Assembly (NCBI RefSeq): GCF_048403405.1
Contig: NZ_CP183129.1
Reading direction: 5' to 3' (one strand)
DNA: 64,000 nt
From: Escherichia coli
GTDB taxonomy: Bacteria > Pseudomonadota > Gammaproteobacteria > Enterobacterales > Enterobacteriaceae
Below are positions 44,037 to 46,539 of the stretch, one piece after another. Both the position numbers and the translations under genes were made by a program. Positions within the stretch are counted from its first letter, which is position 1; every line of letters starts with the position of its first letter. The notes beneath the pieces were generated by a model. That model was not told where the DNA came from. It worked only from the letters and a program-made list of their open reading frames with translations, and did not search any database.

Positions 44037-44579
44037 ATGGACGCAGAGAAAATTCAGTCAGATATAGATGCTCTTTTGACATACATGAACGATGACATGG
44101 AGAATCTTGGTGAAACAATAAAAACCGTTACATTTGGATTCGAAACAGGCCAGAACGACCGCATTGCTATAGACGAGTTGCTTCACTGGCGGGAAGAGTA
44201 TTTGTTCAAAATCATCAATATTTGCCATTCCCGCTCTCTATTACGTAAGGACTTTGGAGATTTTGAGCATGTATCCTTGACAGAAGAGGGTCAGAGTCGT
44301 GCTATATCAATCAAACACGGAAAAAATCGCTCTTACGAGTTAGGGGCCAGCATGCAAATCGCAACGTTAAATGTTCATGGGCCTGCACAGGTTGGTAACG
44401 GTAATACGCAAAACATCCACAATGTATTTAATCAATTACTTCAGCAGATCGAGAAATCTTCCGCTTCTGATGAAGAAAAACAGGAAGCCAAAAAACGCCT
44501 GGCGAAATTTTTGGAACATCCTTTGGTTGGTTCTATTGTCGGCGGTCTTGCTGGTTCCCTTCCTGGTCTAATGGGATGA
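44037..44579 (+). CDS. Hypothetical protein A (180 aa) with a C-terminal Gly-rich hydrophobic tail; first gene of an uncharacterised operon
   Basis: ATG preceded by an AT-rich promoter-like region; C-terminal LVGSIVGGLAGSLPGLMG; stop overlaps the next start (ATGATGG). Confidence 0.55.
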   Translation: MDAEKIQSDIDALLTYMNDDMENLGETIKTVTFGFETGQNDRIAIDELLHWREEYLFKIINICHSRSLLRKDFGDFEHVSLTEEGQSRAISIKHGKNRSYELGASMQIATLNVHGPAQVGNGNTQNIHNVFNQLLQQIEKSSASDEEKQEAKKRLAKFLEHPLVGSIVGGLAGSLPGLMG

Positions 44580-44848
44580 TGGAAGATCTTAAAAAAACGA
44601 TCCGACTGCGCTGTGCATTCTGCCGTTCGGAACAGTTCGCCTTACCTTACGAGGGTTACTCCCCCCCAAGTCATAGCTTTGTCGTTTGTGCCAACTGCGG
44701 GAGGGAAAACGACGTCACATCTCTGCTCATCGTTGCTAAATCGAAAGGGATGGAAATAGCTGAAGAGTATGCTGATGAACTAGTTGAACAGATGACGAAA
44801 GATCTGTTTAAAACTTTTAAAAACCGTAAATTCATAAAGATAAAGTAA
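44576..44848 (+). CDS. Small zinc-ribbon protein B (90 aa)
   Basis: Two CxxC pairs (CAFCRS ... CANCGR) spaced ~25 aa apart; translationally coupled to gene A. Confidence 0.55.
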   Translation: MMEDLKKTIRLRCAFCRSEQFALPYEGYSPPSHSFVVCANCGRENDVTSLLIVAKSKGMEIAEEYADELVEQMTKDLFKTFKNRKFIKIK

Positions 44849-44875
44849 CTGTTACAAAAGTTACATGGAGGACAT

Positions 44876-45850
44876 ATGTCAAGGACTAAAGTACTTTTTG
44901 CTTATTGCCATGAGTTAGATCGGTGTTTATCGATTGATGAAGCAAGAACAGAATTCTTTTCAAAAAAACCGCAAGACAGACAACGATTCACTTTCTCCTG
45001 CAGCGATCGCAACTGCAATGTCACCATTAGTGGTGTTAATTACCATGTCAAAGCGGAAGATGGTGAAAAATTCAAAGTTGCACATTTTCGTTCTCCACAT
45101 CCCCATAATCTGGGATGTGAATGGATGCAGTTTTCTGAGGAAGCTAACCAGCCCCGTCAGGCTAGTGAAACAGAGGCTGACTACACAGAAAGAAAGGCAA
45201 GGCAGAAGCTAAATGATTTTATCAATTGCTTCGATCCTTGTACTGATGAGACAGATTCTGGGCAAAAAAAAACTGGACAACTTACATCACTTTCGCAGGT
45301 AAACCATCTCGCCAAAGACAATGATTTGTCTAACGATAAATCCCACAAGTGGAGCCGTTATACACGAACTAACCAGCTACAGCGCCTAGTAGACACCTGG
45401 CAGGAAGCCAAGAAAACTCTTACATACGACGAGTTCAGAACATTAAAACTAAGAGTCACAAACTACGGAAAGGTTTATTTCCATGAATACATAACGCATA
45501 TTCAGAAAGGGCTAAAAAACCAATATGAAGGCGTCATTTTCGGCGGTGGTTCTTTGGTTAAACGTTATGGTCGTGGCTTTCTCATTCACTTTTTCGATAA
45601 ACATAACGATAAACCAATTCGTCTGTATATCGATAAGAACCTTATGGAGAAAGGGCGATTCAGTCATTATATTGATGAAATATTATCAACAGAGAATGTG
45701 AGATATTTTCGTGTCTTTTTGTTAAACCCAGAAGTTTCCGAAAAAAAAGACCGAACTGGCAAGCCAGTTATCAACCTTGAGATATCAAGCCTGCGACAAT
45801 TGGCGATTTACTACGAACTCAACTCTTCTGAAGATAATGATTTTGTTTGA
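44876..45850 (+). CDS. Hypothetical protein C (324 aa) with a Cys/His-rich N-terminus
   Basis: GGAG-like SD (ACATGGAGGACAT) before the ATG; N-terminal C-x5-C...C-x4-C and HxxxPHPH segment; no confident family. Confidence 0.55.
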   Translation: MSRTKVLFAYCHELDRCLSIDEARTEFFSKKPQDRQRFTFSCSDRNCNVTISGVNYHVKAEDGEKFKVAHFRSPHPHNLGCEWMQFSEEANQPRQASETEADYTERKARQKLNDFINCFDPCTDETDSGQKKTGQLTSLSQVNHLAKDNDLSNDKSHKWSRYTRTNQLQRLVDTWQEAKKTLTYDEFRTLKLRVTNYGKVYFHEYITHIQKGLKNQYEGVIFGGGSLVKRYGRGFLIHFFDKHNDKPIRLYIDKNLMEKGRFSHYIDEILSTENVRYFRVFLLNPEVSEKKDRTGKPVINLEISSLRQLAIYYELNSSEDNDFV

Positions 45851-45887
45851 CAGTAGCATGCTAAATTTATAAAAAGGAGAAGTATTT

Positions 45888-46181
45888 ATGGTCCCTGGAT
45901 ATGTATACATATTAATCAACACAAGCATGCCTGGTTTAATTAAAATAGGTCGAACGCTACGCGACTCACGCATGCGTGCGCGTGAACTCTTCTCCACCGG
46001 AGTGCCAACACCGTTTCAAGTTGCTTTTGAGCTGTTCGCTGAACAACATGAAGCTCTCGAGGCTACGGTACATAATGAATTGAATGATTTTCGAGCTAAT
46101 GTGGCACGCGAGTTTTTCCGCTACCCACTCGACAAGGCCGTTGCATTACTAATTCAGCTGCCCCCTCCAAAACGCCACTGA
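45888..46181 (+). CDS. T5orf172/MUG113-like (GIY-YIG-related) domain protein D (97 aa)
   Basis: N-terminus GYVYILINTSMPGLIKIGRT... resembles the T5orf172 GIY-YIG-like motif; AGGAGA SD upstream. Confidence 0.55.
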   Translation: MVPGYVYILINTSMPGLIKIGRTLRDSRMRARELFSTGVPTPFQVAFELFAEQHEALEATVHNELNDFRANVAREFFRYPLDKAVALLIQLPPPKRH

Positions 46182-46188
46182 ACAGTAT

Positions 46189-46539
46189 GTGGCCGAAGAT
46201 ATAACACAACGGCTTAGAGAAAAATATCCTTTATATATACCTCCAGAAATTGTAGCGGTGAGGATTGTTCAAATGCCCGGAGGTGTCTGGCTAGAGATAA
46301 CGACTGAGAAAAAAATCGCTAGATACCTCGTAGATCAGATAATCCAACGAACAGATCTAGCATTCATTGTTGACACAGACGAGGCATTCTTTCGGTCAGA
46401 AGATGATGTCCGTTTAAATGCGAATAAACTGGTAAATGATTACGATATTTACTCTATCGTCATGACTACGGACCTCTTTCATGATTACGCCTGCCAACAA
46501 ATAACACGCGCGCATCATGCCCAGAGAAATTTCGTCTGA
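46189..46539 (+). CDS. Hypothetical protein E (116 aa)
   Basis: ORF starts 7 nt after gene D in a different frame; could be a separate gene or the displaced C-terminal part of a D-E fusion. Confidence 0.4.
   Translation: MAEDITQRLREKYPLYIPPEIVAVRIVQMPGGVWLEITTEKKIARYLVDQIIQRTDLAFIVDTDEAFFRSEDDVRLNANKLVNDYDIYSIVMTTDLFHDYACQQITRAHHAQRNFV

Follow-up and report, generated by a model that had tools for sequence, protein, structure and literature searches.

T5orf172 domains are known from the ICP1/PLE conflict, where they have been put to nuclease use, as in Odn, or domesticated for DNA binding, as in the CapR repressor (PMC8263062, PMC8096241). Among multigene systems, the TerY-P triad of Gao et al. 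(2020) with an OB-fused kinase is reported as a stand-alone three-gene defence system (PMC10542128), while amyloid signalling requires its motif in both partners of a pair (10.1101/2024.11.07.622273, 10.1101/2020.01.06.895854). These systems are among the closest described counterparts of a 2.5-kb block at positions 44037-46539 (+ strand) of a 64,000-nt stretch of Escherichia coli DNA (contig NZ_CP183129.1; hereafter the window), where five co-directional open reading frames (ORFs), A to E, lie next to a BREX-1 system. The initial annotation proposed a single novel five-gene anti-phage system. Its parts are found apart in most genomes, however, and the unit is not conserved; we consider the block probably a patchwork of cargo modules, three in number and each mobile on its own (A-B, C and D+E), not one system.

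The ORFs themselves are exactly as first described, with the same positions and lengths, a 4-nt overlap between A and B, and later gaps of 27, 37 and 7 nt. Co-occurrence as a unit had been set beforehand as a check on the proposed system, and A-B, C (with a partner gene, P130) and D-E each occur without the others. Profile searches of Pfam, NCBIfam and PADLOC, the last read as matches of single proteins to profiles, matched no gene of the set to an experimentally validated system, as had been suspected. A and C match no family there, whereas D/E and B match the PADLOC candidates PDC-S57 and PDC-M14A, so that two of the three modules touch existing candidate families. No paper came up in full-text searches of the literature for PDC-S57, PDC-M14, ECs_2282 or the RefSeq protein accessions. 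Purifying selection acts on A (dN/dS, the ratio of nonsynonymous to synonymous substitution rates, 0.06-0.07), B (0.21-0.26) and C (0.22-0.24) in comparisons with Hafnia and Citrobacter, and the intact D-E gene has a dN/dS of 0.34. Together with conserved homologues for all of them, these values indicate that the genes are real.

The gene count is where the five-gene picture fails. ORF D (45888-46181, +, 97 aa) and ORF E (46189-46539, +, 116 aa) align over 45888-46539 to one intact gene in E. coli FHI_NMBU_03 (654 nt, 217 aa, annotated as a 'GIY-YIG nuclease family protein'), relative to which the window is 2 nt short in a poly-C tract at 46161-46165 (C5 versus C7; strain ws5-3 has C6). The 2-nt loss shifts the second half of the gene to another frame, and the two reading frames abut at 46162-46166 in tblastn. 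D thus carries the T5orf172 domain and E the C-terminal domain of a protein whose intact form spans 217-220 aa. Residues 4-88 of the intact protein match Pfam T5orf172 (1.6e-13) and MUG113 (7e-9), with the GxVYI...KIGxT motif visible in D, which upholds the motif recognized initially; the remainder, equivalent to ORF E, matches no Pfam family. Full-length homologues of 215-225 aa comprise 255 clusters at 53-91% identity from Enterobacterales, Burkholderia, Sorangium, cyanobacteria, Sulfurospirillum and others across many phyla, and this spread of full-length proteins implies that the one-protein architecture is ancestral. An independent gene E was considered and rejected: its GTG start has no visible Shine-Dalgarno sequence, the intact allele runs from D into E without a break, and in identical strains E is left unannotated by RefSeq. 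As D and E are two frames of one gene, the locus has four genes, one of them disrupted. Judged by alignment, D+E is a single-gene T5orf172 (GIY-YIG-superfamily) protein, inactivated here by a -2 frameshift in a C7 tract.

Elsewhere, the intact D-E gene stands alone, as in a Burkholderia integrative and conjugative element (ICE), beside a ubiquitin-like set (Multi_ubiq/ThiF/BubE), and where a P4-like satellite of Yersinia carries its cargo. Its nearest named relative is PDC-S57, which we take from PADLOC naming to be a candidate family. The T5orf172/MUG113 domain of D matches that profile at 3.3e-29, the proteins are of similar size (~217 aa for D-E), and D-E likewise occurs as a single gene in defence-island or satellite cargo. 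However, just positions 4-101 of the 212-position profile align, and the window copy is frameshifted; with the N-terminal half of the profile alone aligning, the C-terminal domain (ORF E) differs from that of PDC-S57. The T5orf172 end of PD-Lambda-1 also matches D (6e-9). D carries the same domain as Odn and CapR, whereas no similarity to them was detected beyond it, and their partner domains and hosts differ. As a separate observation, 233 E. coli plasmid matches retain only the 3′ part of D-E, an IS3 (insertion sequence) remnant and brxL (window 46202-46700). In the one plasmid examined (L003, 3001-3499) this block directly follows an IS903B element, so that the D-E/IS3/BREX junction predates the move to plasmids.

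ORF A (44037-44579, +, 180 aa) and ORF B (44576-44848, +, 90 aa), the start of which overlaps the end of A as ATGA, form the first module. A predicted model of A places a winged-helix domain at residues 1-95. A low-confidence segment comes next, in which the strand motif (A/G)-Q-(V/I)-G-N-G-N is conserved; after it come a helical part with EEKxEAK and a tail, likewise conserved, of the form HPLV-GxxxGGxxGxxxG. A matches no Pfam, NCBIfam or PADLOC family, its sole matches being two PHROGs of unknown function that cover only the C-terminal part, and a PDB sequence search with a profile of A returned no relatives. B is a zinc ribbon with a helical C-terminal half; as initially annotated it has two CxxC motifs, and both are kept in its homologues. 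It matches PADLOC PDC-M14A at 4.4e-9, the alignment covering positions 13-99 of the 152-position profile; for a prophage homologue of B the value is 1.4e-9. NCBIfam ECs_2282_CxxC scores 24.7 bits, under its cutoff of 37. The likeness to PDC-M14, itself a PADLOC candidate, ends there: B aligns in part, A is not in PADLOC, and A, C, D and E match no PDC-M14 model.

Homologues of A fall into 109 clusters, including Pseudomonas, Aeromonas, Serratia, Pectobacterium and Herbaspirillum, and B adjoins A in every A-B locus examined. In Pseudomonas putida, Aeromonas hydrophila and a lambdoid prophage of Edwardsiella tarda, an 89-aa homologue of B begins 3-7 nt after A, and no C-like or D-E-like genes lie near the pair; the prophage copy sits between AntA and a holin gene. 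The pair also turned up in three viral contigs of IMG/VR, next to a gene for an integrase or UmuC. A separate prophage family of ~165-aa proteins (L055-L063, e.g. L055 5731-6219) bears the C-terminal module of A on a different N-domain, with an exact G-I-Q-V-G core, the EEKxEAK helix and the HPLV-Gly tail, and no B-like zinc-ribbon neighbor was found in the contigs examined. In several of these contigs the upstream ORF opens with a motif that we take to be SRAP/YedK-like. On this distribution, the C-terminal part of A is a portable module, reused with another N-domain and without B.

Two familiar two-gene architectures were considered for A-B and rejected. The pair has a toxin-antitoxin-like layout, with two small, adjacent, overlapping genes, one of which encodes a DNA-binding fold. 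However, neither A nor B matches a toxin family in Pfam, NCBIfam, PADLOC or PHROGs, and viable strains carry frameshifts in A only or in B only. That either gene can persist after loss of the other speaks against a constitutive pair of either polarity, and with it against a classical type II system. Amyloid signalling pairs of the Bab/Agp type (10.1101/2024.11.07.622273) resemble A-B as compact adjacent gene pairs on mobile elements, and the phi-Q-phi-G core of A, with a hydrophobic Gly-rich tail after it, recalls the G-phi-Q-phi-G signature of RHIM/BASS3 (10.1101/2020.01.06.895854). Yet the motif core is in A and not in B, so the defining feature of such a pair is missing; A has a winged helix instead of a Bell or Babybell domain, and no NLR-, TPR- or PIN-type sensor is present.

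The gene structure, the frameshift, the modular distribution and the folds are results of the analysis; each function proposed here, like co-transcription, is inferred, and the mechanism of A-B is offered with low confidence. The two genes would form a translationally coupled cassette acting as a conditional, trigger-dependent abortive-infection or exclusion module. The winged helix of A may sense or bind DNA, its C-terminal module (RHIM-like phi-Q-phi-G strand, helix and glycine-zipper tail) may self-associate or engage the membrane, and the zinc ribbon of B could gate that step.

ORF C (44876-45850, +, 324 aa) has a different home. Its N-domain (residues 1-120) is Cys/His-rich, as the initial annotation noted, with C11, C42, C47, H70, H77 and C81 invariant. 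A disordered acidic linker (residues 126-164) leads to a confidently modelled, beta-rich C-domain (residues 165-315) with a weak resemblance to the OB fold; the best structural matches of this beta-barrel, also weak, are OB-fold binders of single-stranded DNA (ssDNA). No Pfam match was obtained even at E<=10, nor any NCBIfam or PADLOC family, and PHROGs yielded no usable match; a profile search of PDB sequences returned no relatives, and Foldseek against AFDB50 retrieved family members only. The joining of a Cys/His metal-binding region to a beta-barrel recalls the MCM10 internal domain and the OB-fold ssDNA binders of RPA and CST, and C resides in conjugation clusters, conjugation being a process that moves ssDNA. 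From the model, C is probably a zinc-binding N-domain plus an OB-like beta-barrel, hence a nucleic-acid (ssDNA) binder. UniProt and AFDB label the family 'ATPase' or 'Chromosome segregation ATPase', a label that we treated as uninformative; the lack of a family match and the modelled Cys/His domain plus beta-barrel suggest a propagated annotation error.

The close C family numbers 56 clusters, and a profile search of 1.84 billion representatives extended it to 369, nearly all of 305-340 aa and of the same architecture, with members in Providencia, Vibrio, Pseudomonas, Aggregatibacter, Pasteurella and Halomonas. All homologues examined at <=70% identity lack an A-B or D-E context. In the loci surveyed (L004-L011, L035-L039, L041-L048), C is instead convergent with P130, a gene of ~130 aa, in 14 of 15 loci at <=70% identity (14 distinct loci), and the overlap of their 3′ ends spans tens of nucleotides (e.g. 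L009 8001-9325). P130 is 41-98% identical among loci and matches no Pfam, NCBIfam or PADLOC family. Three kinds of conjugation gene cluster contain the pair or have it at their end: VirB-type ICEs of Klebsiella and relatives, MOBC pVA1-type Vibrio plasmids, and an F-like MOBF Serratia plasmid, where it stands just after traI. A Pantoea locus has C alone, without P130, and tblastn found no trace of P130 in the window. Conjugative plasmids and ICEs are, on this survey, the normal home of C, and the copy described here is an orphan without P130.

How, then, did the modules come together? A, B and C adjoin one another only in genomes with a C at least 82% identical to the window copy, which outside E. 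coli means Hafnia, Rahnella, Citrobacter youngae and Enterobacter asburiae. In all four of these genera the trio begins 66-85 nt after a complete TerY-P triad on the same strand (PADLOC TerY 5e-173, PP2C 1e-107, STK_OB 1e-262; e.g. L049 3818-7086, also L023, L034 and L050-L051). D-E follows C in Citrobacter and Enterobacter, and not in Hafnia or Rahnella. Nucleotide homology between E. coli and Hafnia runs from 44025, 12 nt before the start codon of A, to 45833, in the 3′ end of C, and tblastn found no match to TerY, PP2C or STK-OB in the 64-kb window. Because linked copies occur only at this high identity and, outside E. coli, always after TerY-P, the linkage points to one island segment. By this comparison, the order TerY-P, A-B, C and, in some lineages, D-E is one ancestral segment spread among Enterobacterales, not a repeated independent association. 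The three modules would have been joined once, downstream of TerY-P, and E. coli would have obtained the joined segment without TerY-P.

The divergent gene upstream matches PADLOC WYL (1.9e-16). Although the WYL gene is present as initially described, it adjoins A-B-C in E. coli only; tblastn of the other fetched loci, among them those with A-B-C in Hafnia, Rahnella, Citrobacter and Enterobacter, did not find it. This absence of linkage outside E. coli led us to reject it as the dedicated regulator of A-B-C. It resembles YfjR of CP4-57 and is probably part of a CP4-like island backbone.

Comparison of E. coli carriers bears further on whether the genes depend on one another. At least 80% of 43441-46700 is present in just 25 of 5,426 complete E. 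coli genomes, which form five haplotype groups, of which we compared representatives. Every group has at least one of A, B, C and D-E frameshifted, no representative examined has all four intact, and all coding indels between haplotypes sit in mononucleotide runs (in the window, C3 at 44230-44232 in A, C7 at 44661-44667 in B, A9 at 45264-45272 in C and C5 at 46161-46165 in D-E). D-E alone is frameshifted in H1-8, the group of the window, and in H15-20, both by C5 instead of C7 at 46161. H9-11 combine a frameshift in C (A9 to A8 at 45264) with one in D-E (C6 at 46161), and H12-14 combine an extra C at 44230 in A with C5 at 46161; in H21-25, B is frameshifted (C7 to C9 at 44661) and D-E is intact. 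The independent frameshifts in separate lineages fit independent modules.

Several observations weigh against the mosaic. Adjacency, co-orientation and short gaps, without predicted internal terminators, are kept for A-B-C over five genera, so some functional cooperation is possible, and in Citrobacter youngae all four genes are intact together. Only some contexts of A-B are defence islands, the Pseudomonas and Aeromonas copies lying among housekeeping genes; our survey of contexts covers tens of loci, not thousands; and the Gly-zipper-like tail proposed for A, though conserved, Gly-rich and hydrophobic, is only moderately so (Kyte-Doolittle 1.39 over 15 aa). The first of these points could mean that A, B, C and intact D-E are one cooperating four-gene defence system, recently assembled and damaged in its E. 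coli copies. Order and orientation are indeed identical in E. coli, Citrobacter and Enterobacter, spacing is tight with no internal terminators, and all four genes are under purifying selection. Yet every part is found without the others in most lineages, Hafnia and Rahnella do without D-E, and in E. coli individual members of the set (A, B, C or D-E) are lost in one lineage or another while the rest stay. The linked copies, at 82-95% identity, all derive from one segment and so record a single evolutionary event, and we regard a four-gene system as very unlikely. The same single origin tells against reading A-B-C as accessory or effector genes of the TerY-P triad, orphaned in E. coli after its loss. 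The triad is the immediate co-oriented upstream neighbor of the trio in all four non-E. coli genera. However, it is not in the window, A-B and C are widespread without it, and the version with an OB-fused kinase is reported as stand-alone (PMC10542128); a TerY-P accessory role is, in our estimate, highly improbable.

The mosaic of independent cargo modules remains our preferred reading, and what its members do is a further matter. That the three modules are conflict genes is plausible. They might instead have no anti-phage role, A-B being an addiction or toxin-antitoxin-like cassette that makes mobile elements more stable, C (with P130) having a part in conjugation, for instance in managing the ssDNA during transfer or in keeping out competing plasmids, and the T5orf172 gene being a selfish homing-type nuclease. 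In Pseudomonas and Aeromonas, A-B does stand by itself, a two-gene islet surrounded by housekeeping genes. C/P130 is embedded in transfer operons of three conjugation types, T5orf172 domains are found in phage homing endonucleases and domesticated regulators (PMC10448857, PMC8096241), and none of the proteins matches the model of a validated defence system. Against addiction stand viable E. coli with A intact and B frameshifted, and others with B intact and A frameshifted. A-B also occupies positions typical of morons or defence genes (the late region of a prophage, cargo close to an integrase, directly after TerY-P), D-E lies in P4-satellite cargo and in ICE defence clusters, and C is still intact in E. 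coli and Pantoea without P130 or any type IV secretion system. We rate this non-defence reading as a serious possibility, if a rather doubtful one. Unlikely, in our view, is the bold version of the opposite case, in which A-B would be a new two-gene abortive-infection module, widespread in Enterobacterales, Pseudomonas, Aeromonas and prophages, whose winged-helix protein bears a portable RHIM-like strand and a glycine-zipper module for killing or anchoring, gated by the zinc ribbon. C/P130 would separately be a new module for conflicts of conjugative elements, with a zinc-plus-OB ssDNA binder as its basis. The frameshifts, too, could be read otherwise than as decay: the homopolymer tracts may be contingency loci that turn the genes ON and OFF by phase variation. 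Among just five haplotypes, length polymorphism is seen in the C7 tract of B, the A9 tract of C and the C7 tract of D-E, the last with three alleles between strains, C5, C6 and C7. Tract length is constant within haplotype groups, however; the eight genomes identical to the window over this stretch must all have C5. Tracts of 5-9 nt mutate just modestly fast in mismatch-repair-proficient E. coli, and the frameshift of A lies in a C3-to-C4 run that is no contingency tract, making phase variation quite unlikely.

Expression signals are consistent with a shared transcript in E. coli. A perfect CRP-type palindrome, TGTGA-N6-TCACA (TGTGATAGGAATCACA), lies at 43902-43917 (+), ~120 nt before the start codon of A, as a predicted candidate promoter element. 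It is the sole match in the window, where 0.08 would be expected, and is conserved in five of five E. coli haplotypes; a CATAAT hexamer follows at 43940-43945 (+), 22 nt downstream of the palindrome, a class-II-like spacing. Predictions revealed no + strand terminators or good internal promoters between A, B, C and D. The modules are co-oriented and probably co-transcribed in E. coli, and transcription of A-B-C-D from this predicted CRP-dependent promoter is plausible. In strain SCU-171 (L033), an IS3 element is inserted just after the palindrome, cutting it off from A.

For annotation, the locus is a warning on two counts: genes packed closely in one direction within a defence island are not by that alone a system, and an apparent extra gene may be the tail of a frameshifted one. 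In place of the proposed five-gene operon stand three smaller and cleaner test objects. The A-B cassette combines a familyless A (in PADLOC, Pfam and NCBIfam) with strong purifying selection and prophage moron positions, the C/P130 pair is found on several kinds of conjugative element, including pVA1-type plasmids of shrimp-pathogenic Vibrio, and the T5orf172 single-gene candidate has a C-terminal domain that matches no family. Should any of them act in defence or plasmid conflict, it would be one more listed member and no new principle.

The surroundings of the block are largely as the initial annotation described them, with the divergent WYL gene, the IS3 remnant and BREX-1 all in place, and the defence-island setting is real, BREX-1 adjoining in the window. 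Eight complete E. coli genomes have a copy of 43441-46700 at 100% identity. In the RefSeq annotation of an identical strain, a CP4-like island with CbtA/YeeU, RadC, DUF932, a frameshifted GTPase and the WYL gene flanks the block on the left, and an IS3 pseudogene followed by BREX-1 on the right. In the islands of relatives, type I restriction-modification, Mrr, a retron-like reverse transcriptase (PRTase-CE + RVT_1) and AbiGi adjoin. An Rfam search of 43300-46900 gave no match, and a repeat search gave short, chance-like matches only. The island GTPase gene (YeeP/YfjP-like; 41633-42645, -) is split into two ORFs in the window, marked as frameshifted by RefSeq in identical strains, and intact in FHI_NMBU_03. 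Finally, BREX-1 itself contains a two-gene PADLOC HEC-01 candidate between pglZ and pglX (52775-54459, -), comprising the 373-aa AAA ATPase HEC-01A (1.2e-181) and the 189-aa HEC-01B (5.2e-100).

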